Below are positions 32,132 through 59,864 of a stretch of DNA of 64,000 nucleotides, piece by piece. The stretch is from contig CAWIIQ010000001.1 of the NCBI GenBank assembly GCA_963836185.1, forward strand, positions 1,248,001 through 1,312,000, given 5' to 3'. Numbering within the stretch: the first letter of the stretch is position 1; the number at the start of each line of letters is the position of its first letter. The notes under the pieces were generated by a model that worked only from the letters and a program-made list of their open reading frames with translations, was not told where the DNA came from and searched no databases. Position numbers and translations under genes: made by a program. Origin of the DNA: Candidatus Krumholzibacteriia bacterium (GTDB lineage: Bacteria > Krumholzibacteriota > Krumholzibacteriia > Krumholzibacteriales > Krumholzibacteriaceae).

Positions 32132-32138
32132 GAATCAT

Positions 32139-32369: not shown

Positions 32370-32384
32370 TGGCATATACCTTGC
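32370..32384 (+). promoter_or_regulatory. Sigma54-type -24/-12 promoter
   Basis: TGGCATATACCTTGC = GG-N10-GC, close to the consensus TGGCAC-N5-TTGC. Confidence 0.6.
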
Positions 32385-32401
32385 CCCTGTATTGGTGAAT
32401 C

Positions 32402-35400
32402 ATGTCCGGACCGATTAATAAGGCTTCCTCTGGAAGACCGGCGCATAAGCCGGGCAAAAGGGCCCTGAAGGGGCTTATGCTCGCAGTATGCCTCATTCCG
32501 GGAATCCTCTTTTCCACGGCGGCATACGCTCAGCCGGGCAGCGGCACAGCCGCGATATTACCGGCGACAGATGTCGCGGCCGGATCCTCGGGGACCTGGA
32601 CCGTCACCTATCAGGCCGCCACGAATTTTTCGACAGGGGTCGTAAGGCTGACAATACCGGCAGGCTGGACGACACCGCAGATATCCTTGAGCTCCTCCGC
32701 GGGGTTTGTCACCGCGACAAGCCAGGGTGCACTTAACATCACTCCCATATCAATAGCGGGAAACAACATAACGGTCAATGTCGATACCTTGACAGCAGGC
32801 GAAACGGTCACGATCGTTTATGGAGCTCCTGCCGGGCCGGCAGATGCCCAGACACTAACTCAGTCCGGCGTCGAGTTCACAGTCGGGTCCAACCCTCTCG
32901 GTTCGTCGCCTTCTGATCTCACTGCCGGATCACCGACTCTGAACGTGGTGGCGGCGCCTGTCTCGAAACTTGTCTTCACTACTGCTGCCCAGACGGTAAA
33001 AGCTGGCGGAGAGAGCCAAGTCATGAGGGTCATGGCTTTCGACGAGTTCGACAATCCGTCACCGGTCGTTTCAGCCCAGGACGTTTCCCTGTCATCGACA
33101 TCGGGATCCGGGACCTTTTCGCATCTTCCCGCTGGAAGCTGGAGTGCGACGACTTCGGTCACGATATCGGCGGGAGAGGATACGGTCTCTTTCTATTACA
33201 GGGATACATTCCCTGGAGCCTACAATATCACCGCATCCGCGGACGGCCAGAGCTGGACCGATGCCCAGCAGACTGTAACGGTCGATCCGGGGGATGCGGC
33301 AAGCCTGGTCATCTCACCTGCTGATACGACGATCACGGCCGGAGAATTCGGCCGGTATATCCTTCGCACGATCGATATTATAGGGAACCCCAGCGCCCCT
33401 GCCGCGGATCAGACGATAACGCTGATCGCGGGCGGCGGCAGCTTCTATGACAAGGACGATCATGGTACGACCTTGACGGAGCTCGTGATCCCGTCGGGAT
33501 CGAGTGCGGCCGAGTTCGACTTCAGGCATACTATAAAGAATACCGGGGCCGGATACTTCCTCGTATTTCTCGACAATGACGGTGTCGCGCCTCTGCTCCA
33601 GTCGGACAACACTATAGTCTATATCGACAATGCGGCGGCTGATACGTCGGCCTCTTCAATCGAGACAGACGCGGCGACGGCCACCGCAGACGGTGTCGCT
33701 GAGATGGCTGTCACTGTGACGGTAAGGGATGAGTTCGGCAATCCCGTCCCAGGCGTCGCTGTAGTGCTTTCCATGACAGGTACGGGTAATGTGATCACAC
33801 AGCCTGGGGCAGTCACAGACGCGAGCGGTGTAGCGTCCGGATCGGTAAGATCGACAGTAGCCGAAGCCAAGAATATCCGCGCAACTGCGGATGGAACATA
33901 TCTCGAGGATATCATCCTGGTAACATTCACTGCCGGTCCTCTGGACCTTGCGGTATCGACGATAGGGGCTGTACCGCTGACGGTACCGGCGAACGGGACG
34001 GATATAACGACGGTGACTGTGACGGCCCGCGACGCCCAGGGGAACGCGGTGCCCGGGGCGGCTGTTGTGCTTGCGGCTACCGGCAGTGGCAACACGATAA
34101 CGCAGCCTGCGGTAGTGACGGACGCACTTGGGACAGCGACCGGGACGATATCGTCGACGGTGGCGGGGCTCAAGACAGTAAGCGCTACGATAAACGGATC
34201 GGCGCTGACGCCGACGGTGGATGTAGATTTTATAACGGGCACGTTCAGTCTGACAGAGTCCGAGATATCAGGGGACAAGTCTCTGGTGACAGCGGACGGA
34301 TCAGATGAGCTGACGGTGACGGTGACGGTAAGGGATGGAGAGGGGAACCCTGTAGCGGGTGCGGCGGTGACGCTGGAGGCGACCGGCACTGGCAATACGA
34401 TAACGGATCCTGGTCCTGTGACCGGAGTCGACGGGATAGCGACCGGGACGATATCGTCGACGGTGGCGGAGCAGAAGGTAGTGCGTGCTCTGATAGAGGG
34501 CTCGCAGATGGTCGACACTCTTGTCGTCGACTGGGAACACGGTCCTCTGGACCTTGCGGTATCGACGATAGGGGCTGTACCGCTGACGGTACCGGCGAAC
34601 GGGACGGATATAACGACGGTGACTGTGACGGCCCGCGACGCCCAGGGGAACGCGGTGCCCGGGGCGGCTGTTGTGCTTGCGGCTACCGGCAGTGGCAACA
34701 CGATAACGCAGCCTGCGGTAGTGACGGACGCACTTGGGACAGCGACCGGGACGATATCGTCGACGGTGGCGGGGCTCAAGACAGTAAGCGCTACGATAAA
34801 CGGATCGGCGCTGACGCCGACGGTGGATGTAGATTTTATAACGGGCACGTTCAGTCTGACAGAGTCCGAGATATCAGGGGACAAGTCTCTGGTGACAGCG
34901 GACGGATCAGATGAGCTGACGGTGACGGTGACGGTAAGGGATGGAGAGGGGAACCCTGTAGCGGGTGCGGCGGTGACGCTGGAGGCGACCGGCACTGGCA
35001 ATACGATAACGGATCCTGGTCCTGTGACCGGAGTCGACGGGATAGCGACCGGGACGATATCGTCGACGGTGGCGGAGCAGAAGGTAGTGCGTGCTCTGAT
35101 AGAGGGCTCGCAGATGGTCGACACTCTTGTCGTCGACTGGGAACACGGTCCTCTGGACCTTGCGGTATCGACGATAGGGGCTGTACCGCTGACGGTACCG
35201 GCGAACGGGACGGATATAACGACGGTGACTGTGACGGCCCGCGACGCCCAGGGGAACGCGGTGCCCGGGGCGGCTGTTGTGCTTGCGGCTACCGGCAGTG
35301 GCAACACGATAACGCAGCCTGCGGTAGTGACGGACGCACTTGGGACAGCGACCGGGACGATATCGTCGACGGTGGCGGGGCTCAAGACAGTAAGCGCTAC

Positions 35401-38400
35401 GATAAACGGATCGGCGCTGACGCCGACGGTGGATGTAGATTTTATAACGGGCACGTTCAGTCTGACAGAGTCCGAGATATCAGGGGACAAGTCTCTGGTG
35501 ACAGCGGACGGATCAGATGAGCTGACGGTGACGGTGACGGTAAGGGATGGAGAGGGGAACCCTGTAGCGGGTGCGGCGGTGACGCTGGAGGCGACCGGCA
35601 CTGGCAATACGATAACGGATCCTGGTCCTGTGACCGGAGTCGACGGGATAGCGACCGGGACGATATCGTCGACGGTGGCGGAGCAGAAGGTAGTGCGTGC
35701 TCTGATAGAGGGCTCGCAGATGGTCGACACTCTTGTCGTCGACTGGGAACACGGTCCTCTGGACCTTGCGGTATCGACGATAGGGGCTGTACCGCTGACG
35801 GTACCGGCGAACGGGACGGATATAACGACGGTGACTGTGACGGCCCGCGACGCCCAGGGGAACGCGGTGCCCGGGGCGGCTGTTGTGCTTGCGGCTACCG
35901 GCAGTGGCAACACGATAACGCAGCCTGCGGTAGTGACGGACGCACTTGGGACAGCGACCGGGACGATATCGTCGACGGTGGCGGGGCTCAAGACAGTAAG
36001 CGCTACGATAAACGGATCGGCGCTGACGCCGACGGTGGATGTAGATTTTATAACGGGCACGTTCAGTCTGACAGAGTCCGAGATATCAGGGGACAAGTCT
36101 CTGGTGACAGCGGACGGATCAGATGAGCTGACGGTGACGGTGACGGTAAGGGATGGAGAGGGGAACCCTGTAGCGGGTGCGGCGGTGACGCTGGAGGCGA
36201 CCGGCACTGGCAATACGATAACGGATCCTGGTCCTGTGACCGGAGTCGACGGGATAGCGACCGGGACGATATCGTCGACGGTGGCGGAGCAGAAGGTAGT
36301 GCGTGCTCTGATAGAGGGCTCGCAGATGGTCGACACTCTTGTCGTCGACTGGGAACACGGTCCTCTGGACCTTGCGGTATCGACGATAGGGGCTGTACCG
36401 CTGACGGTACCGGCGAACGGGACGGATATAACGACGGTGACTGTGACGGCCCGCGACGCCCAGGGGAACGCGGTGCCCGGGGCGGCTGTTGTGCTTGCGG
36501 CTACCGGCAGTGGCAACACGATAACGCAGCCTGCGGTAGTGACGGACGCACTTGGGACAGCGACCGGGACGATATCGTCGACGGTGGCGGGGCTCAAGAC
36601 AGTAAGCGCTACGATAAACGGATCGGCGCTGACGCCGACGGTGGATGTAGATTTTATAACGGGCACGTTCAGTCTGACAGAGTCCGAGATATCAGGGGAC
36701 AAGTCTCTGGTGACAGCGGACGGATCAGATGAGCTGACGGTGACGGTGACGGTAAGGGATGGAGAGGGGAACCCTGTAGCGGGTGCGGCGGTGACGCTGG
36801 AGGCGACCGGCACTGGCAATACGATAACGGATCCTGGTCCTGTGACCGGAGTCGACGGGATAGCGACCGGGACGATATCGTCGACGGTGGCGGAGCAGAA
36901 GGTAGTGCGTGCTCTGATAGAGGGCTCGCAGATGGTCGACACTCTTGTCGTCGACTGGGAACACGGTCCTCTGGACCTTGCGGTATCGACGATAGGGGCT
37001 GTACCGCTGACGGTACCGGCGAACGGGACGGATATAACGACGGTGACTGTGACGGCCCGCGACGCCCAGGGGAACGCGGTGCCCGGGGCGGCTGTTGTGC
37101 TTGCGGCTACCGGCAGTGGCAACACGATAACGCAGCCTGCGGTAGTGACGGACGCACTTGGGACAGCGACCGGGACGATATCGTCGACGGTGGCGGGGCT
37201 CAAGACAGTAAGCGCTACGATAAACGGATCGGCGCTGACGCCGACGGTGGATGTAGATTTTATAACGGGCACGTTCAGTCTGACAGAGTCCGAGATATCA
37301 GGGGACAAGTCTCTGGTGACAGCGGACGGATCAGATGAGCTGACGGTGACGGTGACGGTAAGGGATGGAGAGGGGAACCCTGTAGCGGGTGCGGCGGTGA
37401 CGCTGGAGGCGACCGGCACTGGCAATACGATAACGGATCCTGGTCCTGTGACCGGAGTCGACGGGATAGCGACCGGGACGATATCGTCGACGGTGGCGGA
37501 GCAGAAGGTAGTGCGTGCTCTGATAGAGGGCTCGCAGATGGTCGACACTCTTGTCGTCGACTGGGAACACGGTCCTCTGGACCTTGCGGTATCGACGATA
37601 GGGGCTGTACCGCTGACGGTACCGGCGAACGGGACGGATATAACGACGGTGACTGTGACGGCCCGCGACGCCCAGGGGAACGCGGTGCCCGGGGCGGCTG
37701 TTGTGCTTGCGGCTACCGGCAGTGGCAACACGATAACGCAGCCTGCGGTAGTGACGGACGCACTTGGGACAGCGACCGGGACGATATCGTCGACGGTGGC
37801 GGGGCTCAAGACAGTAAGCGCTACGATAAACGGATCGGCGCTGACGCCGACGGTGGATGTAGATTTTCTGACAGGATCGTTTGACATCGCTCTCTCCTTT
37901 ATGGATGGAGACAAGAACGAGGTCACGGCCGACGACGTGGACGCGCTGGGTGTTACTGTCATGGTGCGTGACCAGTATGACAATCCTGTGGTGGGAGCAG
38001 CCGTGACGCTGGAGGCGACCGGCACTGCCAATACAATAGTACAGCCTGTAGGTGGGACAGACATCGACGGGAAAGCGGATGGGACCATCAGTTCCACATT
38101 CGCCGAACGGAAGGTAATAAGGGCCCGTATCGGGACCGTGCAGATAACAGATACGCTGGTGGTCGACTGGGTGCCCGGGCCCGTGGACCTCGATCGCTCC
38201 CAGATATTCTCCGATGTGGACACTGTGACAGCCGATGGATCGGACAACTGCCGCATAACGGTAGTCGTCCGGGACGCGAATGACAATCCGATCGGCGGCG
38301 CCTCAGTAAATCTCCAGGCGGACGATACGGGCGGCAACAATACATACTTCCAGCCGGTCGACGACTCGAACGAATTTGGTATCGCGGTCGGATGGATCAG

Positions 38401-41400
38401 CTCGACCTACGCTGAGATAAAGACTGTAAGTGCTACAATAAATGGCTTTACGATGAGCGGCACGCGTGATGTCGCATTCGTGGCCGGAGAGCCGGACAGG
38501 TTTGTAATAACCCATGATGGATCGGGGACCGCGGGCGCTCCGGAAGAGATCTCGATCGAGATATTCGACGCGAATGACAATACCGTCGACTGGTTCGACG
38601 ATATCATACGTGTCTATACGGACAGTCCCGAGATAACGGATATGATCGACTGGGCCCTCGGCCCTGGAGCTTCGGGCAGTATAAGTGAGTCCGGGGATAC
38701 GGTCAGTTACGACTTCTCCGTGGCAGACAATGGAAGGGTAGTGCTGGGATTCCGTGATGAGAAGGCTGAGACTGTCTATTTCACTGCCAGGTACGGTTCC
38801 GTGATCGATCAGTCGGTGCTGTCGATGACGATCGCTCCCGCCCAAGCGGACAGCATCTTCATCATCGCGGGGAACGGTCAGCGTGCCGTTGTCGATCAGG
38901 CTGTGGCGCAGCCGCTGACAGTCGGCGTCGAGGACGCGTTCGGTAACCGGGTACCATCCCATGCCGTCAGGTTCCATGTCACAGCCGGCGCCGGTATGAT
39001 CGATGTCGATACTTCCTCACCGCCCGACGATCAGGAATGGACAGTGACCGATGGCGCGGGAGTCGCCGTATGTGATTCGTGGATACTCGGAACGGTAAGC
39101 GGGGAAGGCTCGGATGAAGCAAGCGCCTCGATCCCGTTCGGTTCGACCGATGAAGTGTTTTTTACCGCGACGACCGATCATGATGAACTGGCATCGGTAG
39201 TACTGGCCCCGGCTGTCGCCGGTGTCACGGTCAACAGCAACCTGATCGTGACCGCTACGATGAGGGATCAGTTTAACAACCTCGTTGTCGGCGAAAACCT
39301 CACGATCTTCATAAAGGATGCCGCTGACGGTACCCTCTCGGAAGATACGGGAAACGCGAATGCGACAGTTCCTCTGGGACCCGGTATCCGTTCCGGATCG
39401 AGCGATTCCACCGGAACAGTCACAGTCCAGTACAATTCGCCGGCTGCCGCGGGACTTTCGGACATCGTCGACGCTTCTCATGCCGTGTTGACAGCGGACC
39501 AGATAGCCGATGCTGTATACACCTCCGTCGCCAGTGGAGCTACCAAGCTTATTGTGACCGATATCACCGGCCAGCCCTCACAGGCGGGGACCGTATTCTC
39601 TTTCAGAGTGAGAGCGGTCGACAGCAACGACAACCTCGATCCGACAAATACAAGCCATATAGTGCTTGTACCCGAGGCTGGAGGAGGACTGATATTCAGC
39701 TCCGATATCGGATTAGTCCCGGCGATCACAGAAATCGATCTCATCAATGGCGAGTACCTCCTCTACGCAATGGGCACGGCCACCGGTGACTGGAACATCG
39801 ATGTGATAGATTCTCCTTCGAGCCTTACCGATGCGGCTTTCACGGCGTCAATTACGGCCAACGATAATGTCCATCACTATGCGATAACAGCGCCTGCTGT
39901 TGCGACGGCAGGTATCGATTTCCCTGTATCCCTCGAGGCGAGGGACGAATGGAACAACCTCGTTACAACGGCAAATTATGATATCGACCTTCGCGCAGTG
40001 CAGCCTGTTGACACTGCAGCAGCCGCGGGCGCGGCACTGAATATTACCGCCGGCGCTATCAGCAACGGCCGCTTCTCTGAAGATAATCTCAGGTATGACC
40101 TCGCCGAACCGATCAGGGTGGAGATCAGAGATGACAGCACCTCGGTCGTCGGCGTCAGCGGGGTCGTCGATATCGGTCACGCTCCCGCGTGGCAGATAGT
40201 GGAGGTCTCTGGAGATACGACAGGAGTGGCTGCCGGGAGCCTTGTACTGCTCAGCATGAGAGTTCTCGACAGTTTCGGCAACCCGGTGGGGGGTGAGACG
40301 GTCTCATTCAGCATACTGGAAGGCGGAGGCGGTCTCGGCGCGCTGCAGGGTGTGACCGGCGTGGACGGAATGACATCTGTCTCATACACGACTGGAGTGA
40401 TCGCGGGAACGAACAGGGTAAGGGCAGCGATACTCGATGGAAATCCCGAAGGTCTCGAGACGCGTGAATTCGTCATAGAGACTGTTCCCCAGGGAGCCAT
40501 CGCGTATGTACTCCTCGATATCACGGGAGACACTTTCGAGGCTGGTGAAGAGTTCACCGTCCACGTCACTGCTTACGATCTGAACAACAATCCCATAACC
40601 ACGGATAACTCTACCAGGCTCATACCAGTCGCCCAGACTCTCTCTGTAGTTTTCAATCCCGATACGTTGCAGCTCTCGTCAGGCGAGGCTTCGTTCACGG
40701 CAACGGATACTGTGATGGGTACGAACAGGATATTCATCGAAGAGCTTTCGGGGGTGACGCGCGGAGGGAGCAGTGACCTGACTATTACGGCGGGACCCGC
40801 GTACGAGCTCGTCAAGGTAAGCGGGGATACGACTGGTGTTATCTCGGGAGACACGACAGAGGTGCTGGTCCGGGTGGCCGATATGTACGGCAACCCTGTG
40901 CAGAACGAGACGGTGAGATTCCTGATAACGAGTAATCTCGGCGGCAGCCCGTCACTGATCGATGAAACAGGTGCCCCCGGTGATGGCCTTGTGCTCAGCG
41001 CAGCGAACGGCACGGCCGCGTGCAGGCTTGTTACTGACACGAATTACGGCACGAACAATGTGCTGACCACGATACTTGATGGAACACCGGAAAGGGAGAC
41101 TGCTACCTTCGATGTAGAGACTACCGCAGGCACCATCCAAAGATACACGTTGGTACCGGTCGGAACGATCCATACCGCCGGAGAGAGCTTCGACGTTGAG
41201 ATAACCGGCTATGACCTCAATGACAATGTCGCTGAAGGCGATTTTACGACCGTTGTAGATCTCGGGAGCGATGGAACAGCCGTGTGGGCGGAGAATCCTG
41301 TGACCCTGAACAACGGAAGGTACACCGTCAGCGTCTCGGAAAACGCCGCGGGTCCGCTTGTCCTGCATGCTGAGACCCAGGGCGGAGGAGCGCTCAGTAA

Positions 41401-44400
41401 CAGCGAGACGATCATGATCGTTCCGGAGCTTCCTTCAGGAGACATATGGATCGCCTCGATCAATCCCGATACGATCACTGCGGATGGAATGAGCCAGTCG
41501 GCGATCGAGACTGAGCCAGTATTCGATATCTACGGAAACGTCGTGCCCGAGAGGACTCTGGTAACTGTTTCGACTACCGGCGGCTCCGTAGCAAGCGAGG
41601 ATCTCGATCTGACAGAGCCCGGTGTCCAGAGAGAGACGGCCCAGAACGGGGTAGTTTCAGTCTTCGTCAGGTCCGGGATCACGCCGGGAGATTACGATGT
41701 AGATTTTGCCAGCGTTGAGGGATCTGCGACGGGTGACACAGTACTGACTTTCGCGCCTCCCCCCGCTGTGGCCTACGCCGATTCGATATATCCGATCTAC
41801 GCGGTGCCTGGATCGGACCTCCACTTCAGCGTCCGCATGACAAACACGAGCCCTACCAGGGTTCTCCTCGGCGCTGCGAGCAAGATCTCGTTCAGTGACG
41901 GAATCGGACATGAATTCGAAGCTGAACTGGGTTCCAGTCTCAGCCTCAACAGACTTGAGACGGCTGACCTGATATTTACCGAGACCACGATGCACCCGAT
42001 GTTCGAACCGGGAACATATTCACCGAGGATCTCACTGATCGGTACCGATGAATACGGATCGGCCTACACGGCGGGATTCGATGCCGGTGCCAACTCAGTG
42101 AGTGTATCTAGTATCGAGATCAGCAGTATCCTGCCCCTCAAGACCGTTGTGAGCAGGGGGGATACCGCAATAGTCAACGTGAACATCACTAATACAGGCG
42201 GAGCGGTAGTAAGGATACAGGAGATAGATCTTCTGTTCGCGTCCGGAAGTTATCTCGCTTTGCCCGATTCTACTTTCCCGGAACTGCCCGATACTCTGCC
42301 CGCCGGACTCAGCAGGACATATGCTCTAAAGACGATTGTGCTGCCGAACTGCCCGCTCGGTGTGGATACGATCGATGCCCAGGTGACCGCACGGGTCAAC
42401 GGCTATGAAGTCACAGACCTGACTGCTGATCATAACGTAGCGACCTGGACGGTCCAGTCCTCCGCTCTTATCTCTTATGAAGCTGGTACGCTCGCTCCGA
42501 TGGTCGTCTCTTCGGGGCAGGCTCATTCGTTCACTCTCGATCTCCTGAACTCTGGAGAAGCCGCGGTGATCCTCGATGCCGGCCTGACCACGTTATCATT
42601 TAACGATGGAACGGAGACATACGCTGTTGCTCTCGCCTCAGAAGGAGCGCTGCCGGGCGGAGCGGTCTCCGACCTGATATTCCCAGAGACCTCGATACCC
42701 GCCGGGATGAGTGCGGGAGCCTGGGAGGTGACCGTGGTGCTGAGCGGGACCGAGAACGGCGGCGAGTTCGATACCTCGTTCGTGCTGAGCGATCCGGTGA
42801 CGGTCGTAAGCCCGGCTGCTGTCAGTTATAACACCTCGTCACTCTCACCCTCGACCGTGAGCAAGAACAGCTCGGTGGCGTTCGAGGTCGGAATAAACAA
42901 CACCGGGGGCGCGGATGTCTTTCTCGATCCGGCTGCCACGACTTTCGAACTGGATGATGGCGCTACGACTTACATTGCTTATCTGGACGGCGCACGGAAT
43001 AATCTGCTGGCGCCAGGCGAAAATACGATATGGTTTGAAGCTGTCACGATCCCGCCAGGGTTTATTACAAACAGTTACACGCCGGTCATAGAACTGTCCG
43101 GTACGGAGAACGGCCTGCCATTCGCCGCGCAGCCTCCCGTTTCCGATGCGGTCTCTGTGCAGGATGCCTCGCAGCTTGCAATAAACAGCACCGAGATCTT
43201 ACTGACTGACCTGTTCACTGCTGACCAGACCGGATTCAGGATTGCTCAGATAAGGGTCGCCAACAATGGAGAAGCTGAGGTCAGGCTGGACAGCCTCGAT
43301 GTCAGGTTCTACATCGGCGGGAGCGAAGTCACTGGCGAGTATGTGTTGAGTCCCCTGCCGGATGTGGCGGGGATCCAGGTGCCCGGCGGAGCTGACACTC
43401 TCGTAAGGATGATGTTCGAAGATGGCGCCGGACCTGCGACGACAGGGACCGTGACTGTCGAGTCGTCCCTGTGGGGAACGGATCTCAACAGCATGGGTGA
43501 GCTGGAAGTGACGACTGAATACGGCGGCAAGGGGAGCTTCACAGTTCAGACACCCTCGGTCCTGGCAGTCGACCATGTCATCGCTTCGGTGACAGAGGCG
43601 ACGGCCGGCCAGGACAGGGACTGGGTTGTCGATGTGATAGTACGAAATGACGGGGAGTCAGACCTTGATCTGAATCTGGCAGCGACTGCCCTTACATTCT
43701 CGACTTCCGGTGATTTCACCGTCATCCCGCCGGCGGAGCTGGCAGGGGGCGGGATCACGCTCGAGGGAGAATCGTCCGATACATTGAGTTTTATTGTGGA
43801 TATTACAGGCTCAGTTTCCGGCAACTGCAGTGTGAACATGACTGCAAATGGAACTGAGATAAACTCAGCCAGGAATCTCGGTCCGGTCAGCGCCGACCCG
43901 GCTGACGCCGCTTCAGTGGATATCCAGGGTGAAGCGCTGCTGCAGGTCGTGTCCGTTACGGCTCTTCAGGATCCCGTGACTGTCGGCCAGTCTAACGAAT
44001 GGTCGATCGATATGGTCGTCATCAATGGCGGCGGATCGAGCGTGACGCTCGACCTCGACAGTTTCGATTCGACGTTTGTCGCGGTAGATGGAGGGATTGG
44101 TTTTGCCTTCACGCGGCCGACCGAGATACTCGAGGGAGGCCTGTCTCTCGAGGCGGGGGAGACGGGGACTCTGAGGTTTATTGTAAATACGACTGGATCG
44201 GTGCCTGCCGGAGCTACGGCACTCTCAGGAAGCATCATCGGCACCGAGGACAACAGCGGCTCCAGGGTATACGACGGGATAACAGGTCCTGTGGGAATCA
44301 ACTCGATGCTCTTTGAGGAGCGTCCCGTTCCTCAGTACACCCTCGACAGCCTCACTCCGACTGTAGCGAGCACGGGCTCGGATATCGGTATCCAGTTAGG

Positions 44401-48517: not shown

Positions 48518-48527
48518 GTGGAAGAGG

Positions 48528-50418
48528 ATGAAGAGAGTACTTGAAATAACACTGATCATCGCTCTCGGACTCTGTCCTGTCGGCGCTGCCGCACAGGATG
48601 GAGGCGGGGGAACGAGATCGGTCTTTACTCTCGGCGCCGGGTCCCGGGCCATCGCCATGGGCGGAGCTTTCTCCGCAGTGGCCAACGACGCATCAGCGCT
48701 CTACTACAATCCCGCCGCGATGAAGATCAACGGCGCGCCAACTTTAATGGCGAACCATATATCGCTCTTCTCCGGATTCACCGATGCGAGCTACGATTAT
48801 CTTGGACTCGTCTGGCCGACACTTGGAGCCGGGGCATTCGGTGCAGGCCTGCTCACGACTGGAACGGGTGGTATCCAGGGGTATGACGAGTTCAGCAGGC
48901 CTACCGGAGAACTCTCGTACAGGGAGAGCCAGGGGATCGTTTCGTACGCGTTCGATGTCCCATGGAGATTTGCGGGCACCTGGTCGTTGGGGACCTCGAT
49001 AAAGGTCCTCCATCAGAAGGTGGGAGAATATTCCGATACGGGGGCGGGACTCGACCTGGGCCTTCTTTACCGCATCAAGTATATCGAAGGACTCGTTTTC
49101 GGCGTGAACCTCCAGGATATCGTCGGAGCGAGGACAAAGCTCGTTTCGGCGAGCGATGAGGTATATCGCACGATGATGTTCGGTCTCGGTTACATAAGAC
49201 CGATCGGTGAGAGTTCCAGGCTGACCCTGGCGGTACAGATGGATATGCCGGAGAAGGCTGACAACGATCTCAGGGTCGGAGCCGAGTACACGATCCGCGA
49301 CATGATCAGCATCAGGATTGGGTTACGATTCTGAGTCATTTACAGCGGGAATCGGATTCACATGGCACGGGTACGCGTTCGACTACGGGTACTTCAGCAG
49401 GGAAGAGGCGGGAAGTTCGCACCCGATCACGCTGTCGGCCAGGCTGGGCAAACCGCTCGAGCAGCAGATCGCCGAGCAGGATGAGGCAAGAAGGATCGAA
49501 GAGGAGAGAATGCTCAACGATCTCTTCGCGGCTCGTATAGCCTCGCACATCGACGCCGCCGACAGTCTCCGTGGAGCGGGCGAACTGGAGAGCGCCCTCG
49601 ACGAGGTCAAGATAGCGCTCGAGTACGATCCGGGCAGTGAGAGGGCGTTGACTCTGCGCGATGAGATCGGAACGGCGATCCTGGCAGCACAGGCGGAGCG
49701 TGCGAAGGACAGCGAGAAAGAGCTTCTGATAAACCAGCATTTCGAACTTGGATTGAGACATTACAACGCCAACGAATATATCCTCGCGAGGGCCGAATGG
49801 AGGAACGTCCTTGAGATCGATCCTGAAAACGTGGAGGCACTCGGCTACCTGCGCCGGACCGAGGAGAAGCTCGACGAGCAACTCCAGTCACACGTTTCCA
49901 CGGCGGCGGAATACGAGAGGACAGGAAGGCTCCCAGAGGCGATAGGTGAGTGGAATATCGTCAGTATGATCGAACCCGATAATGCCGAGGCTGCCGCCGC
50001 GATCGAGCGGATCAAGCTGCGTATTAACAGCATGAGCAGGGATTACAACGAGGCCAATCGCAAGCTCCAGACGATCGATCTCTACGAGAGAGCGCTAACA
50101 GCGTTCAGCGAGGGCAGGTACGAGGACGCGGTCACGCTCTCGCAGCAGGTGCTCCAGCTCGACCCGGCTCATGAAGGGGCGAAAGATCTGATCAATGGGG
50201 CGCAGCGCAGGATGAGACCTCTCAGCGACGAGGAAAATGAAGAGATAAGGACCCTGTATATCCAGGGCATGACATACTTCGGCCAGAAGGAATATGAGAA
50301 GGCGATCGAAATATATTCGAGGATACTTGAGATCAATCCATATAACGAGAGTGTCAGAAAGCAGGTCGAAGAGGCACGGCAGAGATTGAAGAAACTCGAA
50401 TCACCTGAAGGCGGATAA
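48528..50418 (+). CDS. PorV-family beta-barrel fused to C-terminal TPR domain (frameshift ~49322)
   Basis: GAGSRAIAMGGAFSAVANDASALYYNPAAM; barrel strands continue across the shift (IRIG-YDSESFTAGIG...FDYGY); then multiple TPRs (ALEYDP, VLEIDPEN, ILEINPYN). Confidence 0.85.
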
Positions 50419-53400
50419 GTGAAGCGGGAGCTCCTAAAGGGCAAAGAGACATTCCACCTCGAGATCCCGGCCGATGAGAATAATCTCAGCGATGTCCGGG
50501 ATTTCATCGCCGAGGTCTGTTTTAAAGCCGGTTTCTCCAAGCGTGAGATGAACAATACGAAGCTCGCGATGGATGAGGCCTGCACGAATATCATCAAGCA
50601 CGCCTATCGTGACAAAGCCGGAACCATACGCATCGACGTCGAGGCGGAACCCGGCAAAGTCGAGATGAACATCTTCGACAGGGGAAAACCTTTCGACTGG
50701 TCGAAGGTGAAGGATCCCGACCTGCAGAAATATGTCGAGATCGGCAAGAAGGGCGGCCTCGGCATCTACCTGATGAACAGGTTGATGGACGACCTGGATT
50801 ATCAGACCTCGGAGGACGGAAACCGGCTCTACATGGCAAAGGTCGCGGGCAGCGAAATGTCAGAGCCCCTGTTTCTGTCCATCAAGCCGAAATGGACCGC
50901 GACTCTTCGATTCAAATTTGCGTTCAGGGCGACTCTCGGGCTTCTCGGTCTCGTATTCTTCCTCTGGGCAATACAGTATGTGAACCAGACAAGGGTCGTC
51001 AATTCCCGGACGGACGAGGCCTGGCAGTCGATGAAAAATTATGCCAGGGCGGTCGAGGGAAAGAGCGAGACGGCGATGATCAAGGACGACCTGTTCGATC
51101 CGGAGTACAGGGAACTCACCGATTTCGTGATCGAGAGGGTCGCGAAGCATCCAGCCGTTAGATACACGAAGATCGTCAACAACAGACGGGGTCATCGTCT
51201 CTTCAAGCGATGTGGAAGAGTTCATGATCGGATACCAGATCCCGCCGGGCGCCGTGACGATGGACCAGGGCGGGACGTGGGTGATAAAAAAGGATGAGGA
51301 CGGCGAAGTCACAAGGGAACTGCATTTCCCCATTTTTATAACGCGGGATGAGGCCGAGAATGTAGCGTCACTCGGTCGTGTCGTAGTCGGGGTCTCCGAG
51401 GGCGTGATAATGAACAGTGTCGACGATCCGAGGCTGAAGACAGCCCTGATCCTTATCGGCATATTCATAGTCGGGCTATCCCTGATCTACCTGCTCATCT
51501 CGGTTTTCGTAAAGCCGATACAGGCCCTGACAGACGGAGTAAGGGCGATCGGAGAAGGTGCGCTTCACGACGAGATAAAGATCGACGGGCCGGAGGAGAT
51601 CGGAGAGATCGCCAGGGCCTTCAACGAGATAACGATGAAATTCCGCGACGCACAGCAGAGCGTAGTCGAGCAGGAAAGGATGCAGAAGGAGATGCAGGTC
51701 GCCCAGGAGATCCAGCATTCGCTCCTTCCCGGGAAGGTCCCCGATGTCAGCGGGTATGACATCGCCAGCCTCTACCGCGCGGCCAAGGAAGTCGGAGGAG
51801 ACTATTACGACTTCGTAAGTGTCGATGAGGATACGCTAGGTGTAGTCGTGGCGGATGTGTCAGGCAAGGGCGTACCCGGCTCCCTCGTAATGACGATGAT
51901 CCGTACAGCTCTGAGAATGGAGGCGAGGGGAAGCCATTCTGCCGCAGACGTCATGGCGCGTATGAACGATTTTGTCACCGAGGACATGAAGAAGGGGATG
52001 TTTGTAACGATCTTCTACGTGATCCTCGATTCGAAGAACAGGGTCATCAGCTACGCGAGCGCGGGTCACAATCCCATGGTCCTGTTCCGGGCCGAGACAG
52101 ACGAGACATTTTTCCTCAATCCGCAGAGGGTTCCCTGTCGGCATCAGCCTTCCGGATGAAAGTCTTTTCCGGCGTTCGATAGACGTAGAAAAGATCAAAC
52201 TGAAAAAAGACGACATGCTCGTCATATACACAGATGGTGTGACCGAGGCGATGAACGACGCGAGGGAGCAGTATGGAGAGGATCGTCTGCTCGCCCTGAT
52301 AAAGACTTGCGGCAAGAAGTCACCCGACGAATTCATAGATCTGCTCAACGAGGATATCAGGGAATTCACAGGTGGCTATCCGCAGAACGACGATATCACT
52401 GTCGTTGCCGTGAAAGAAAAGATGATGGCCGACGACGTGCTCTTCGGGATCAGGAAGAAACTGCTCGATCTCGTGGAGGTAGAGGGTCTCACTGTGGCCG
52501 AGGCTTGCCTGCGCATGAAGGTGTCGCCGTCTACATACTACCGGTACAAGAAGCGTATGACCGAGATGGGAGACCGCGGGCTGAAAAACAAGAGCCTGCG
52601 TGAGGAGCACGAGATAAAACGGGTCAGCCTGGAGCAGAGGAAAGGCCTTCTCGAGATAATCAGAAGGGATCCGAAGTTCGGAGCGAAGCGGATAGCGACC
52701 ACATTCAATGAAGACAAGGATGAAGGTGATCTGCTGACACCGTCGTTGATCTATGATGAGCTGAAGAGGATGCGACTGAATACATACGACAAGAGACTCG
52801 AATATCTCAGGCGCAACAGGTTCATCACTGAGGAACAGTTCCAGGCGATGCTGTCCGGTGAGGAAGATCGAGGTCGTCACGGGGGACGGGGTGCCGACAG
52901 TTCCTGTCGATGAAATGCCTGTTCCCGGCGATGAACCCGGTGAGATCATTGAGCCCGCGGCCGTTGTTCCGGCGGAAACCGGACCCGTGGATACCGATGT
53001 GCCCGAGTACCAGCCTGTGACCGTCTCGAAGTTCGATGAGGATGCGGAGGAGGATGATGTAGACAAACTTCTCGCTTCGGTACTCGGAACGGATCAGGGA
53101 GAAGGCGGCCTCGTCGAGGTCCTGACGCAGGATGAAGAGACGGGAATCATCGTCGTAAGGGTAACGGGCCATCTCGATTCGAGTTCGGCTGGAGAACTCG
53201 AAGTGTTCCTCGAGAGTGTATACGAATACGGATTCTCCAAGATCGTAATGGATCTTGGAAGCGTACCTTATATCAGCAGCGGCGGATGGGGCATCTTCAC
53301 CGGACGTGTGAAGATGCTGAGGGAGAAAGAGGGCGACGTCGTTCTTGCGGGCATGTCTCCCGAGGTGTTCGATATCTACGAGCTTCTCGGTTTTCAGGAT

Positions 53401-54793
53401 ATCATCATGCATTTCCGCAACGTCGACGAAGCAGTCGATTTCATATCTCTTCCGTTCGATGTCAGGCAGGAAAGGCTCGAGCTCGTTTCCGGCAATGTCT
53501 CGGAAGGCAAGCGTCTCGAGCAGAGGATAAGCGCTGTCTCCAGGGAAGAGGAAGAGGCGGAGGAGGAAGGGGCAGTTCCGTGGTCGCCGCTGAGGATCGA
53601 AGCGGGGACGGTCGGGCAGTCTGGCGAGATCACGATACTCAATCTGATCGGGGTCATAGATACGGTCAGCTGCATGAAGCTCCGGGACATCCTGGAGAAC
53701 CTCATCGCAAAGGGTGTGAACGAAATTCGTGGTGGATATGTCCCTGGTCGAATATGTCAGCAGCGCGGGATGGGGAGTGTTCGCATCGAGGATAGATGAT
53801 GTGAGACGTGCCGAGGGTGATATAAAGATATTCGGGATGGATCCCGAAGTAGACAGCATCTTCCATCTGCTCGGATTCGATGTGATCATGCGCTCGTTCA
53901 GCATCCTGTCGGAGGCGATCGACGATTTCGAACGGAAACCGGCTCTTGCCAGCGTCGACTGTGCCGGCCACATCGACTATTGCCGTCCCGGCTAGACAAG
54001 CCGGCATCAGCTGCCGTGGACCGATGAAGAGACCGTGCAGGAGGCCGTTGCGGAAGCACCGGAGGCTGATACCAGGCAGACAGGCCCGGATATGAGCAGG
54101 CTGGAGTTCGAGGTTGTCGCAAGGAGGTCGCCCGACGGGAGATCGATGGTGCTCGATATCTCCGGGGCGATAGACGCCGCTACATCGGCTGTCTTTCGAG
54201 GACAGGCTGGAGATCGCGATCGAGGACAGCCCAGGTTCCTTGTGCTCGATCTTTCCGGAGTGATATATATAAGCAGCAGCGGCTGGGGAGTCATCGTCAA
54301 GTACATGCAGAAGACAGGGGAGCTGGGGCGGTAAGATGGCGCTTTCAGGGATGAATCAGCCGATATTCAAGATATTCAGGGACCTTGGGTTCGAGCCGCT
54401 GATACCGCACTTCATGAGCAGTGGAGCGGCTCTGGCCGAACTCTCCGCACCGGCCGCCGAATCGATCGATAGAGGAACCGGCCGCCAGGAAGTCGAGAGT
54501 CCGCCTCCCGCTGAAGAGGTCGTGAAGGAAGAGCCGGCGCAGAGTGGACGCGTTCCGGTCCGACCCGCTTCCCGAGAAGTCAGCGGGTCCCGAGCTGGAG
54601 AAAACCGGCGTCGAGCCGATAGAGCCGGCGGAAAGGGAGCAGGTCGAGACCACTCGACGTCAAACTCGACCTTTCTGAGAAGGCCGGAGAGGCTGAAGGT
54701 AAGGACGGGAAGATTCGCAAGATGGGATGGGGCGAGTACGGCAGGAAGCTTTTCGAGCGGAACAGCAAGAGGGACGGGAGGAAGAAGAAATGA
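50419..54793 (+). CDS. Multidomain membrane signalling protein: RsbW-like kinase, TM/periplasmic/HAMP, SpoIIE/PP2C phosphatase, HTH, three STAS domains (about seven frameshifts)
   Basis: DEACTNIIKHAY, DRGKPFD, GGLGIYLM; two TMs and HAMP (EEIGEIARAFN); VGGDYYD, ADVSGKG, SAGHNP, YTDGVTEA, DDIT; HTH; three YxSSxGWG STAS motifs; final frame ends RKKK* overlapping the ParA ATG. Confidence 0.75.
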
Positions 54794-55542
54794 AGAGCTT
54801 CGCGATAATGACTATGAAGGGGGGCACGGGCAAGACGACGACGGCAATAAGTCTCGCGCACGGATTGACCCTCAGCGGAAGAAAGGTGCTTCTCGTCGAC
54901 TGCGATCCGCAGCGAAATGTAGCCGTCACCTTCGGTGTCAAGGGAGAGAAGGGTCTCGACGGGCTCCTGATGACGGGCGACGTCGATATCATACAGGTAA
55001 GGGAGAACCTTTTCATCATAGACTCGGGCGGACGCCGGCTGGTCGAAGTAGAGCTGCAGCTGGGAAGACAGGAAAAACGCGAAGGAAGGATGCGGGACGC
55101 CCTGGCGCATCTGAAGGGGTGCGATTACGTTATCTGCGACTGCCCTCCCTCGATGAACCTGATAAATGTCAACGTGCTTGCTTACTGCGACGAAGTGATA
55201 GTCCCGGTAGGTATGGACTATCTTTCCGAAGTGGGGGCACGCCAGACGATGGAGATCATCGAGGAGATCAAGTGGATCACTGAAAAGAGCGCAATCGATT
55301 ACAGGATACTGCCTACATTCTACGATTCCCGCACGAGGATATCGAAGACCGTACTGAAGGACCTGAAGGAACATTTCGGTGACAGGGTTTTCAATACCGT
55401 GATCAGGATCAATACGGCGATAAAGGAAGCCCCGGGCTCAAACAAGACAATATATGAGCACGCTCCCCTGTCGAGGGGAGCGTACGATTACTACAAGCTG
55501 ACCGAAGAAGTGCTCGCTCTCGAAAAAGAGGATGAGCTCTGA
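54790..55542 (+). CDS. ParA/Soj family ATPase (orphan, no parB nearby)
   Basis: KGGTGKTTT deviant Walker A, LVDCDPQ, DYVICDCPP, IRINTAIKEAP. Confidence 0.92.
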   Translation: MKSFAIMTMKGGTGKTTTAISLAHGLTLSGRKVLLVDCDPQRNVAVTFGVKGEKGLDGLLMTGDVDIIQVRENLFIIDSGGRRLVEVELQLGRQEKREGRMRDALAHLKGCDYVICDCPPSMNLINVNVLAYCDEVIVPVGMDYLSEVGARQTMEIIEEIKWITEKSAIDYRILPTFYDSRTRISKTVLKDLKEHFGDRVFNTVIRINTAIKEAPGSNKTIYEHAPLSRGAYDYYKLTEEVLALEKEDEL

Positions 55543-55612
55543 AGGCAGGCTGTTTTACTGTATTCCGCGGAGGAGATATGATACTATTCCCTCCATGCGG
55601 GAGGAGATCCTA

Positions 55613-56730
55613 TTGGACAGTTTTGAATTGAGGGAAGAGATACGTCACGGCGGGGCAAGTTATTTCCTGCAGACGAGCTATCAATCCTGAGAGCGGGCAG
55701 ATAAAGAGCGCGTTCTTCAGGGACGGAAATGTCTTTGATTCGATCGTAAGGCAGGCAGGGGATGCTGACGCCGACGAGCTCAGGGAACTCACGAAGGAGA
55801 TCCACCAGCGCAACAAGCGGAGCTTCCGGTTCATCCTCGACGCGAGAGACAACATCAGCAGATCGGACGATCCCAACCCGCATCTCAGGCTCGCCGAGAC
55901 CCTGTTGAGGAGGAATCTCTTCCGGGAGGCTGATAGCCGAGGCCGAGATGGCAGTGGAGAAGGGCGCGAAAGACTCGAGGGCATGGATGGTCACAGGCGA
56001 GGCTCTGTACATGATCGACGAGCTGGACATGGCCCTGGACGCGATCCGAAAAGGTATTGAGATCAGTCCCGATTATCCCGACCTGCACAACATCATCGGA
56101 AAGATATTTCTCAGGCAGAACATGTGCGGCATGGCGGTCGAGAGTTTCAAGAAGGCGATCAGCCTGAACATCTATTACGGAGAACCGTATCTGAACCTGA
56201 TCCGGGCATATCTGACCAACACGATAGTCAAGCAGGACTACGAGCTTTCCCGCGGGCTCGAGGAGAAATTCTCGACGAATCTCGAGAGGGCCGGTCAGCT
56301 CAATACAAACCTCAAAGACGGGATCCTCGATGAAGTAAGGGAACATTTCAAGCGGGAGCAGTATGAAGAGGCTCTGAAGCTGCTCGAAGGAATCGATACG
56401 GTCAATCCCCGAAGTCTCGTAGACGATATTATCCTCGAGCTCTATCTGATGCTCATCCAGAGCGGAGATGAGATCGAGGAGGCGGATATCGAAAAGTACC
56501 TGGAGAAGGTCGAGGAGATACTGGACCGGAATCCTACCTTCGCCGATGCCTGGAACTCGCTGGGAATCCTTTATACTGCAAAATGCAAGGTATTCATGGA
56601 TAAAGCCAGTGTAGCATTCGGGAAGGCTCTCGAGATCAACCCGGAGTATGAAAAAGCGAGGAAAAACCTGAGGCTTACGGAGAACGACCGACAAGGAATT
56701 TTTATCCTTTTAAAGGCATTATTGGACTGA
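55613..56730 (+). CDS. TPR protein (two frameshifts, ~55682 and ~55931)
   Basis: TTG start after GGAGGAG; coding-like frames join ORF 55948; TPR motifs PDYPDLHNIIG, PTFADAWNSLG, ALEINPEYEKARKNL. Confidence 0.75.
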
Positions 56731-56777
56731 AAGTTGCAGTTCAAGGACGCGAGGCAATAAAAACAGGAATCTGACGC

Positions 56778-57146
56778 ATGGACAAGCTGCTTATAAACGA
56801 AGAAAAGGTCGAGGACGTAGTCGTCCTGAAGCTACAGGGGCTGGTAGATTCCGGCACCTCTCAGCAGATGGAAGGACGGCTTAACGATCTGATCTCTGAC
56901 GGTAACGTCAAGATCGTCGTGGATCTCGACCTGGTGGATTACATAAGTTCCGCCGGATGGGGGATATTCGTAGGTGAGATAAAGGGAGTAAGAGAGAGCG
57001 ACGGCGATATCAAACTAGCCTCGATGCGTCCCGATGTTCGGGAGGTATTCGACCTGCTCGAGTTCAACACCCTGCTGACACCGTACGATTCCCGGGGGGA
57101 TGCTCTGGCAGCGTTTGAAGCGGATAAAAGAAGCGAACTGGCTTGA
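56778..57146 (+). CDS. STAS-domain anti-anti-sigma-factor-like protein
   Basis: LKLQGLVDS, IVVDL..VDYISSAGWG. Confidence 0.93.
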   Translation: MDKLLINEEKVEDVVVLKLQGLVDSGTSQQMEGRLNDLISDGNVKIVVDLDLVDYISSAGWGIFVGEIKGVRESDGDIKLASMRPDVREVFDLLEFNTLLTPYDSRGDALAAFEADKRSELA

Positions 57147-57173
57147 GCAAGGAAGCAAAGGGGAACAATACCG

Positions 57174-57575
57174 ATGAATGACATCAACATTTCTTTTTCT
57201 AAATCTGACGAGAATCCCGATGTATCGGTCATATCCGTGAAGGGATATGTCGACACCACGACCTCGACCGATCTCGAAGAGAGCCTCAAGCGACTGCTGG
57301 GCAAGGGAAGATACGACATAGTAATAGACCTGGGAGATGTGAACTATATCAGTTCCGCAGGATGGGGTATCTTCATCAGTGAGATCAAGGAGATCAGGGA
57401 AAACGGCGGGGACCTGAAGCTTGCCGCTATGATCGGCGACGTCTACGAGGTATTCGAACTGCTCGAGTTCCAGACTATCCTGGAGAGTTTTGATACTGTC
57501 GAGGAAGCTGTCACTAGCTTTGGCGAGTCTTCTCGCGGGAAAAACGGAAGCGAGGAGAACCAGATCAAGGCTTGA
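57174..57575 (+). CDS. STAS-domain anti-anti-sigma-factor-like protein
   Basis: VKGYVDT, IVIDLGDVNYISSAGWG. Confidence 0.93.
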   Translation: MNDINISFSKSDENPDVSVISVKGYVDTTTSTDLEESLKRLLGKGRYDIVIDLGDVNYISSAGWGIFISEIKEIRENGGDLKLAAMIGDVYEVFELLEFQTILESFDTVEEAVTSFGESSRGKNGSEENQIKA

Positions 57576-57605
57576 TCGCTGACTCGATATAGCTGAAAAT
57601 TACAG

Positions 57606-57632
57606 ACCTCCGCCAACGGCGGAGGTTTTTTT
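57606..57632 (+). terminator. Rho-independent terminator closing the adhesin/partner-switch operon
   Basis: ACCTCCGCC-AAC-GGCGGAGGT followed by a T-run. Confidence 0.9.
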
Positions 57633-57690
57633 ATTATCCGGCTACGGCCATCCTCGGTTAAACTCTCCCTGTTGTATCGATGGAGGTATT

Positions 57691-59843: not shown

Positions 59844-59864
59844 GCCGGGATAATCCGAAAATCC

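Follow-up and report, generated by a model that had tools for sequence, protein, structure and literature searches.

The SiaABCD system of Pseudomonas aeruginosa, in which SiaC activates the cyclase SiaD, is described as a switch that controls aggregation (PMC7647112, PMC8457831). SypE/SypA of Vibrio fischeri is linked to polysaccharide and biofilm formation, and has no known sigma target (PMC3610818, PMC8256260). Rv1364c from Mycobacterium tuberculosis has the domain order PAS-PP2C-kinase-STAS and acts in SigF regulation (PMC9138534; PDB 3ke6), and CapK/CapS is described as a soluble, single-stranded-DNA-activated system that controls immune operons (PMC13373217). SprB-SprF and PG1035-PorP-PorE are described as T9SS cargo that is anchored on a barrel with a periplasmic partner beneath (PMC12618676, PMC9143113), and type A CTD cargo is stated there to be normally joined to LPS and not retained on the barrel (PMC9143113). 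PorA-PorXY-SigP of Porphyromonas gingivalis is presented as a system of histidine kinase and ECF sigma factor for which the CTD itself is the ligand (PMC12152298).

The operon presented here (32370..57632 of the window, i.e., of the whole 64-kb stretch of DNA that was analysed; all features lie on its + strand) encodes, co-oriented and in the order given by the initial annotation, a giant putative adhesin, a barrel-TPR protein, an inner-membrane sensor, ParA, a TPR protein, and two STAS proteins. The initial annotation had not recognised this combination as described, and indeed no description was found in the literature searched, mostly non-subscription sources and main texts.

As in SiaABCD, a PP2C phosphatase is combined with an opposing kinase and a small target, and a cyclase follows the STAS gene in Zixibacteria-labelled loci; among known structures, the PP2C domain of SiaA matches that of the sensor best (Z 27.3). 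Unlike in SiaABCD, where the kinase is separate, kinase and phosphatase are here fused on one membrane chain, a serine loop is found in place of Thr68, and there is a fixed link to an outer-membrane barrel-TPR protein and T9SS cargo. An identity as SiaA equivalog was rejected (NF038263, 80.3 bits against a cut-off of 700). SypE likewise carries an N-terminal serine kinase and a C-terminal PP2C on a single chain acting on a STAS protein, but its centre is a REC domain, whereas TM-Cache-TM-HAMP, followed by HTH and tethered STAS, is found here. Rv1364c also unites sensor, PP2C (Z 25.3), kinase, and STAS in a single polypeptide; it lacks, however, a membrane-spanning receptor, and no SigB/F/G-type factor (TIGR02980) scored above cut-off in this 92.5% complete genome. 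CapK/CapS, in which an anti-sigma-type kinase phosphorylates a DNA-binding STAS-like protein without a sigma factor, provides a precedent for the STAS-HTH fusions present in 18 of our loci, yet its abstract names no phosphatase or envelope part. With SprB-SprF and PG1035-PorP-PorE the locus shares a barrel gene directly downstream of a giant cargo gene (here at a 10-nt gap), but differs in its PorV/PorQ-family barrel, type A-like CTD, and fused, predicted periplasmic TPR rod, and in that the gene after the barrel encodes a signalling enzyme. A path from T9SS cargo through the periplasm to an inner-membrane sensor, as proposed here, has its counterpart in PorA-PorXY-SigP, albeit without barrel-borne rod and without partner switch.

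Operon layout and interrupted reading frames

A re-check of the sequence confirmed the order, spacings, sigma54-type site, and terminator of the operon as real. The sigma54-type -24/-12 site (32370..32384) exceeds chance expectation, being present in 9/9 readable upstream regions of the same order, though not found in 16 such regions of the phylum's other orders; its motif with a 5-nt spacer occurs 24 times genome-wide (20 outside long ORFs), as compared to 1-8 times (0-2 outside long ORFs) with seven other spacers. A second conserved motif, TTGCAW-N17-TAnnnT (32098..32126; likewise 9/9 in the order), may be a sigma70-type promoter or an activator site. In agreement with the initial annotation, the operon contains no sigma factor gene: 14 sigma70-family matches and rpoN, which this genome possesses, all lie outside the window. 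The tight coupling that had been assigned to most of the genes applies to the first four, with the barrel gene 10 nt after the surface-protein gene and 0 nt before the sensor gene, and an ATGA overlap between sensor and ParA, but not to the last three, which are spaced at 70, 47, and 27 nt. Since these loosely spaced genes are preceded by a sigma70-like match that may act as an internal promoter of the TPR gene (55554..55582; 9/12 matches, loosely kept in congeners), a single transcript is only a candidate. The operon ends in an intrinsic terminator-like hairpin (57604..57636; 11 pairs and a T run), similar to hairpins in 9/24 relatives, and no Rfam family was found within the window, 270-nt leader included. 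The downstream neighbours, a frameshifted VWA-domain gene and a lamin-tail/FlgD gene (57691..61550), are kept in the same phylum and in Eisenbacteria-labelled loci and stand outside the cross-phylum core.

In this assembly, the three middle genes are interrupted, with one frame change in the barrel gene (near 49318), at least seven in the sensor gene, and two in the TPR gene, most of them single extra bases relative to a congener. Relatives have intact frames of 629 aa (barrel), 1379-1493 aa (sensor), and 371-378 aa (TPR protein), and at two sites reported with an extra base, this base is missing from short contigs of sequencing run X1, which covers the stretch in short pieces only; an assembly error is therefore the likely cause. 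A pseudogene reading is less likely given the single-base insertions, the lack of stops in well-aligned pieces, the 84-90% identity to the congener, and similar breaks in unrelated neighbouring genes. A special genetic code was set aside because the breaks are frame changes.

The encoded proteins

The giant Ig-repeat surface protein (32402..48517; 5371 aa, about 2800-5900 aa within the phylum) begins with a signal peptide (hydrophobic stretch 25-43) and carries Big_1/invasin repeats, with Big_1 matches in 17 stretches and six identical 606-bp two-domain repeats at 33935-37570; its sequence suggests an adhesin. At its end (~48191-48514) lies a T9SS type A-like CTD that weakly passes TIGR04183 (29.6 bits, cut-off 23), and no CHU_C (type B CTD) match was found on the C-terminal 2371 aa. 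No other part of the cargo is as well conserved as this CTD (54-92% identity as compared to 34-74% for the body), which reaches 107 bits vs 69 for the next among the 109 CTD-bearing ORFs of the genome. The T9SS translocon SprA, the sortase PorU, and PorV all score above cut-off in this genome; the GldM and GldN models (PorL/M motor, PorK/N ring) gave no match here and none in the control genomes either.

The following gene (48528..50418) had been annotated as PorV-TPR, an identity that holds at the level of the PorV/PorQ family (NF033709; 113.1 bits for the congener barrel P0003, cut-off 90) but not for PorV proper (NF033710, 27.5 bits vs 250); a canonical PorV is encoded behind PorU elsewhere in the genome. 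A PorP/SprF shuttle was rejected as well (TIGR03519, 33.6 bits, cut-off 90.55). In the predicted structure (pLDDT 84), 14 strands are followed by a 320-aa helical rod of four 30-43-residue helices linked by TPR hairpins and ending in a conserved TPR tip, and the top Foldseek matches of the barrel are FadL and PorV, i.e., a 14-strand FadL-like fold with an N-terminal hatch. No TPR rod was matched among the other 10 PorV-like matches of the genome. The tip is more conserved (34%) than the rod (20-23%), and the rod is predicted to lie in the periplasm.

The sensor (50419..54793; 1455 aa in the intact congener protein P0002) consists of an RsbW-type kinase, TM1, a PDC-Cache domain, TM2, HAMP, PP2C, two HTH modules, three STAS domains, and the tail motif IRxxGWxxYGxxL. 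The RsbW/HAMP/PP2C/HTH/STAS chain of the initial annotation is thereby retained, although with three STAS domains rather than one. A GHKL serine kinase, a PP2C with metal-binding aspartates, and STAS with a conserved serine loop are all present, and the same 12 residues of the kinase and PP2C motifs recur without exception in 73/73 sensors. Kinase and phosphatase are predicted to act on the STAS domains of the operon. The periplasmic domain matches the PDC folds of WalK (Z 15.0) and CitA (Z 13.4) as well as the ligand-binding PDC domain of DcuS (E 5e-4) and shows the lowest conservation within the sensor (17% mean identity). Both HTH modules are transposase-type, and the ESM Atlas returned only generic HTH/transposase clusters for this region; an IS481/IS630 transposase or IS remnant was rejected, as the match spans only model positions 2-112 of 284 and the modules are in frame and conserved across phyla. 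Many Zixibacteria-labelled sensors lack them.

The ParA/Soj-like ATPase (54790..55542) has an intact Walker A motif and no ParB gene beside it, its neighbours being the sensor and TPR genes, and was not assigned to a ParAB partition system (NF041546, 87.9 bits vs 180). Within the phylum, sensor tail motif and ParA co-occur: six f8 loci and L089 lack the two, and L087 has both. The cytoplasmic TPR protein (55613..56730) carries an unassigned N-terminal domain, for which the ESM Atlas gave no match, and in the Zixibacteria-labelled phylum homologs of this protein are encoded within the cyclase/Wza locus. The free STAS proteins 1 (56778..57146) and 2 (57174..57575) both carry a YISSAGW loop, and homologs of the latter in other phyla end in the second HTH of the sensor.

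Conservation across phyla

In several phyla with differing flanks, almost every sensor homolog has a barrel-TPR gene and a CTD cargo gene ahead of it, so that the main refuting case named in the initial annotation, signalling genes rarely adjacent to PorV-TPR or adhesin genes, did not arise. Counting fused sensors with at least 3.3 kb of readable upstream DNA, and bearing in mind that loci of kin share gene order and are not independent events, barrel-TPR stands directly upstream in 93/100 loci and the tip in 94/100 (barrel-TPR in 41/41 loci of the same phylum, 20/23 from the collection scan, 14/16 KSB1-labelled, and 18/20 Zixibacteria-labelled); L077 and L210, whose sensors are cut by runs of N, were left out. 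CTD cargo precedes the barrel in 89/97 loci. In a separate Calditrichota-labelled sample counted by hand, a barrel-TPR gene precedes 46/50 sensors within 301 bp, while 0/29 distant PP2C control loci had a barrel or CTD match above 40 bits. By genome, the sensor occurs in 50/51 Calditrichota-labelled, 40/41 KSB1-labelled, 34/41 Zixibacteria-labelled, and 91/208 same-phylum genomes; it was not found in 401 genomes of the Bacteroidota side. The carriers belong to several phyla of mostly uncultured bacteria.

The cross-phylum core is CTD cargo, barrel-TPR rod, RsbW-Cache-HAMP-PP2C-HTH sensor, and STAS. Background synteny was rejected as the whole cause: flanks are conserved within the order too, but only the core between phyla. 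The conserved unit is thus smaller than the 25-kb operon initially proposed, with ParA (0/14 KSB1-labelled loci, missing from most others), the TPR gene, and the sensor-tethered STAS domains missing in many lineages; these parts are lineage add-ons. TPR tip and sensor form the tightest pair of the cassette, as five loci (L124, L127, L128, L130, and L228) encode, ahead of the sensor, a TPR protein without barrel that has a signal peptide and retains this tip. Another locus (L120) has a shortened rod with tip and no cargo, and six fused sensors (L121, L122, L123, L207, L208, and L211) have neither tip nor barrel upstream. Mirror-tree covariation, in contrast, does not single out the tip-sensor pair, since the residual correlation of tip and periplasmic domain (0.40) compares with 0.43 for barrel and kinase, which are unable to touch.

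Possible signalling routes and output

The locus probably represents a trans-envelope form of partner switching. The best explanation, which we regard as evenly balanced between holding and failing, is an outside-in chain from cargo via barrel, rod tip, and Cache domain to kinase and phosphatase acting on STAS; its direction, the reach of the rod, and the cargo-barrel and tip-Cache contacts are inferred. The CTD would anchor the giant surface protein on the PorV-like barrel, whose TPR rod would reach and bind the periplasmic Cache domain with its tip. A barrel that is loaded or pulled would then tilt the balance of the sensor between phosphorylating and dephosphorylating its STAS domains, and ParA would position the complex by binding the tail motif. 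The predicted folds of barrel-TPR and sensor fit this geometry. However, the low conservation of the periplasmic domain is not the simplest expectation for a fixed interface, and if type A cargo is released from the barrel, no pull on the rod is possible; the genome has PorU. Adhesin engagement, which the initial annotation took as the input, may be one input but not the sole one, since loci that have lost barrel or cargo still pair the tip with the sensor.

As its output, the switch likely drives an attachment programme that involves no sigma factor, although a factor other than the SigB/F type could still be its target. Of 20 Zixibacteria-labelled loci, 18 continue with a diguanylate cyclase (GGDEF) and 17 with Wza; GGDEF was found in 0/43 loci of the phylum of this genome, and this operon has no cyclase. 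Elsewhere in the genome, the sigma54 motif of the operon also precedes a GAF-GGDEF/Wza/Wzc locus, a second Wza, pilB, and pilM, and the remote cyclase resembles the Zixibacteria-labelled ones in the GGDEF domain only (35%). By analogy to SiaABCD, STAS control of diguanylate cyclase and polysaccharide export is likely, with DNA binding through the HTH modules possibly as second output.

Other readings share parts of this evidence. The sensor might monitor secretion, reading the empty or loaded barrel or unsecreted CTD cargo in the periplasm and tuning production of the giant protein without any surface contact. The binding of the PorA CTD to the sensor kinase PorY in the periplasm, as reported (PMC12152298), the outstanding conservation and score of the CTD, and the cost of a 5371-aa product speak for it, yet it explains neither why tip and sensor stay paired after the loss of barrel and cargo nor why genes for a cyclase and for polysaccharide export are linked to the cassette, and we consider it unlikely, if the foremost of the rivals. 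Adhesion genes are often clustered with their regulators, and adhesin and sensor may also be co-regulated but uncoupled: Cache would bind a small ligand and control biofilm like SiaA/SypE, and the rod would brace the adhesin carrier structurally or fix it to the cell wall. The ligand-binding PDC domains of DcuS and CitA are the closest folds, six sensors have no upstream rod, and the periplasmic partner PorE holds PorP-type barrels (PMC9143113). This reading, ranked behind secretion monitoring and likewise improbable, faces strict cross-phylum adjacency, 0-nt gaps, and a lone tip gene in five loci, which exceed what co-regulation needs, and 17% conservation argues against a single shared ligand pocket.

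Signalling could conversely run inside-out, the phosphorylation state of the sensor together with ParA positioning, holding, or releasing barrel and adhesin via the rod. LapD/LapG is a model for such control, orphan ParA proteins position large complexes, and tail motif and ParA are kept and lost together in the phylum. The Cache-HAMP-PP2C order is, however, that of an input receptor, the cassette contains no protease gene, and ParA is missing from KSB1-labelled and most other loci, so that we regard this direction as the least probable. The outside-in chain can be extended to a broader proposal, possible but on balance doubtful: in a new class of trans-envelope signalling, a carrier barrel of a secretion system would have become a receptor that keeps its giant adhesin and passes force or occupancy via a TPR rod spanning the periplasm to a bifunctional serine kinase/phosphatase, which would set c-di-GMP and expression through STAS and a domesticated transposase HTH without sigma factor. 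Such a sensor of surface contact would be near-core in several FCB phyla and absent from the sampled Bacteroidota.

It has long been asked how bacteria detect the binding of their adhesins, and little is known about what SiaA- and SypE-type switches respond to. To our knowledge, all T9SS work has been done on the Bacteroidota side, where the sensor was not found. The cassette proposes a specific and testable wire between two easily expressed parts, a TPR tip of 60 residues and a Cache domain of 150. If true, the PorV family would be extended from shuttle to receptor, and the inward-pointing arm of the barrel would let the cell monitor its own surface protein.

Gene order across phyla

The core of the gene order described in the initial annotation holds across genomes: a barrel-TPR gene lies upstream of 93 of 100 fused sensors, the tip (i.e., the last TPR of the barrel's rod) upstream of 94 of 100, and a CTD cargo upstream in 89 of 97 loci, identical rows and rows with less than 3.3 kb upstream having been dropped from these counts. 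On the KSB1 side, the neighbourhoods of 19 of 45 matches were used, and on the Zixibacteria side those of 20 of 34; the selection deliberately took in second copies and forms lacking the HTH. By hand count, 46 of 50 sensors in a Calditrichota-labelled sample are no more than 301 bp away from the barrel gene; of the other four, three are on a different contig from the barrel gene and one is itself cut by an assembly gap. As a control, 29 distant PP2C loci (L151, a family member, excluded) gave zero barrel or CTD matches above 40 bits. Within the organism's own order the flanks are conserved too, and between phyla they differ, so that only the cross-phylum comparison carries weight; kin, furthermore, are not independent, and the counts thus describe a few deep lineages.

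The PP2C-HTH junction occurs in 91 of 208 genomes of the own phylum and in none of those of two of its families (0/91 and 0/12). A profile search yielded dozens of 50%-identity clusters with the complete kinase-to-HTH architecture, and a collection scan covering 5 of 64 parts returned loci titled Zixibacteria, Eisenbacteria, FCPU426, Calditrichota, KSB1, Spirochaetes, Ignavibacteria, Cytophagia, and Omnitrophota, these being depositors' titles that are possibly wrong. Around the labelled loci, the sensor is present in 50 of 51 (Calditrichota), 40 of 41 (KSB1), and 34 of 41 (Zixibacteria) sampled genomes; around a Parabacteroides genome it was found in 0 of 401, with two candidates scored per genome.

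Several loci depart from this arrangement. Five (L124, L127, L128, L130, L228) encode, directly upstream of the sensor, a TPR protein that has a signal peptide and this tip and lacks the barrel, and L120 has a shortened rod with the tip, RNase R being upstream instead of the cargo. Upstream of six fused sensors (L123, L207, L208, L211, L122, L121) there is no tip and no barrel. For L121, a barrel-TPR gene lies 3.5 kb off on the opposite strand; L123, L207, and L208 are second copies adjoining an unrelated cytoplasmic gene, their sensors (1250-1990 aa) standing behind a 250-aa P-loop-like gene. In a split type (L124, L128, L130, L127, L140), HAMP-PP2C, STAS, and RsbW are separate genes, followed by GAF-GGDEF in three loci and an MCP-domain gene in two; both the fused and the split type occur in FCPU426-labelled genomes. 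L132 (3484-9968) is a variant with a cell-wall-binding domain, in which two barrel-TPR genes and a propeller-OmpA gene precede a HAMP-PP2C sensor, and in L191-L206 (KSB1-labelled) the sensor C terminus is a cytoplasmic TPR region in place of STAS domains. Of 20 Zixibacteria-labelled loci, 18 have GGDEF and 17 have Wza downstream, and neither follows the cassette in 43 own-phylum or 14 KSB1-labelled loci.

Reading frames and modules

The ORF list gives a 5371-aa cargo protein (32402-48517) and is fragmented 3' of it; Pfam recovers the domains named in the initial annotation in the same order. In a congener whose frames are intact, the barrel, sensor, and TPR genes encode 629, 1455, and 371 aa. 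Compared with it, the window shows frame changes, for the most part through single extra bases, in the barrel gene (one), the sensor gene (at least seven), and the TPR gene (two). Unrelated neighbour genes have comparable breaks (29-31 kb and 58 kb), whereas the 16-kb cargo gene and seven genes at 16-28 kb have none, and the extra bases at 54321 and 54653 are absent from contigs of a DNA sequencing run covering the window in short pieces (run X1, low depth). The frame changes are likely assembly errors. Elsewhere in this genome (3.5 Mb in six contigs), STAS, RsbW-like, and sigma factor matches on contig C5 (12.5 kb) score equal to those at C1:1947500-1948800, probably a duplication in the assembly.

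The window sequence confirms the two gaps (10 nt and 0 nt), the ATGA overlap, and the terminator reported earlier. The order and spacing of the proposed 25-kb operon stand; the conserved unit is smaller and does not include ParA, the TPR gene, and the tethered STAS domains, which are absent from one family of the phylum (f8) and from locus L089, where the core is kept, and which are add-ons to that core.

The cargo has a signal peptide, a type A CTD (weak match), 17 matches to Big_1, and six repeats whose DNA is identical. It spans ~2800-5900 aa in the own phylum and is shorter, down to ~800-1600 aa, in Zixibacteria-labelled loci. The 606-bp repeats (33935-37570) differ in copy number among relatives, and their identity may stem from gene conversion, from an expansion in the recent past, or from the assembly. 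The genome encodes SprA and PorU with its own PorV; models of GldM and GldN gave no match in it, the control genomes being blank as well, and its T9SS may use another motor. At C1:1969747-1979402, a second CTD cargo (1505 aa) stands immediately upstream of a gene for a PorV-like barrel lacking TPR, and CBM48 genes come next. Upstream of the cassette, a CBM48 cluster (26796-32030) consists of a CBM48 fusion and two small lipoprotein-like CBM48 genes, with frameshifts in this assembly; it is a conserved neighbour in most of the phylum and not in f8.

Among 11 PorV-like matches in the genome, only the cassette barrel bears a TPR rod. Its model (pLDDT 84, pTM 0.51) shows hatch helices, 14 strands, helices of 40, 43, 30, and 42 residues with short hairpins, and a terminal TPR unit; FadL and PorV rank first in Foldseek, and by analogy with these barrels we take the C terminus to be periplasmic. 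From the helix rise, the modelled rod would measure an estimated ~17-19 nm if straight. Its best conserved part is the tip (34% vs 20-23% elsewhere).

The sensor has two TM helices flanking, in the periplasm, a PDC/Cache fold (WalK Z 15.0 and CitA 13.4 by structure; DcuS by sequence) that is only 17% conserved. The kinase is SpoIIAB-like (Z 18.3), and the nearest match of the PP2C domain is SiaA (Z 27.3). Twelve motif residues do not vary across 73 of 73 sensors, and a Y-I/V-S-S-x-G-W loop is common to the STAS domains. In the HTH region, the similarity is to the front part of IS481/IS630 transposases, their catalytic core being absent, and the second HTH is carried by 18 free STAS proteins outside the own phylum. 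Within it, the sensor's C-terminal IRxxGWxxYGxxL motif is present or absent exactly with ParA, which suggests a ParA docking site. Homologs of the N-terminal domain of the TPR protein (55613-55880), which has no match among Pfam families or Atlas clusters, recur near the cassette in several phyla.

Promoter motifs

All nine readable upstream regions from the own order (one further region being N-masked) retain the sigma54-like site noted at 32370, in DNA that is otherwise hardly alignable; a search of 16 regions from other orders of the phylum did not find it, and two of five readable ones from other phyla have it. A second motif with sigma70 spacing lies 270 nt further upstream in the same nine regions, the ~270-nt distance being common to all. 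The stretch between both motifs (32127-32369), with zero Rfam matches, may hold activator sites or a leader RNA. Given a weak sigma70-like match upstream of the TPR gene, the final three genes may be transcribed from a separate promoter.

Genome-wide, the sigma54 motif with its 5-nt spacer occurs 24 times; 20 of these sites fall outside long ORFs and 18 shortly before a long ORF, vs 1-8, 0-2, and 0-1 for seven other spacers. Behind such sites lie a GAF-GGDEF cyclase at the head of a sugar dehydrogenase/epimerase/Wza/Wzc locus, a second Wza, pilB-pilT-pilC, pilM-pilQ, a REC-GGDEF protein, and a sigma54 activator, which looks like a putative sigma54 attachment regulon. The set (L231-L241) has ~20 sites, which also cover the adhesin operon and several genes that belong to no known family.

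Precedents and a possible mechanism

Every module has its own precedent: shuttle genes behind their cargo (PMC12618676), cargo kept on a barrel with a periplasmic partner (PMC9143113), CTD-to-sensor signalling (PMC12152298), SiaABC and SiaC-SiaD (PMC7647112, PMC8457831), SypE/SypA (PMC3610818), HsbR-type PA3346/PA3347 and others (PMC8256260), Rv1364c (PMC9138534), and CapK/CapS (PMC13373217). The cassette would act in the manner of Sia/Syp partner switches, yet proved to be a member of neither SiaABCD, SypE, nor the sigma-controlling Rsb systems, and no description of the combination was found in the literature searched.

We infer every contact in the following scheme, which is the likeliest reading and to which we give an even chance. 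The barrel would hold the CTD of the cargo and the rod tip would bind the Cache domain, such that barrel load or occupancy would shift the HAMP-linked kinase/phosphatase balance on STAS; the output would go to a cyclase, to polysaccharide export, and perhaps to DNA. Its least secure step is that the type A-like cargo would be retained; type A cargo in Bacteroidota is LPS-linked (PMC9143113). Counting against the tip-Cache contact are the six fused sensors without tip or barrel upstream, the low conservation of the periplasmic domain, and a covariation between tip and periplasmic domain (0.40) that does not exceed that of an impossible pair (barrel and kinase, 0.43). It is rather unlikely that the sensor reads export status as a secretion monitor. 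Co-regulation without coupling, in which the Cache domain would take a small ligand and the rod would be a strut, is also unlikely, if slightly more so. Least probable is the reverse direction, with sensor and ParA controlling barrel and adhesin from the inside.

The cassette is real and widespread, and undescribed within the literature searched; tentatively, it may represent a new class of surface-contact receptor.
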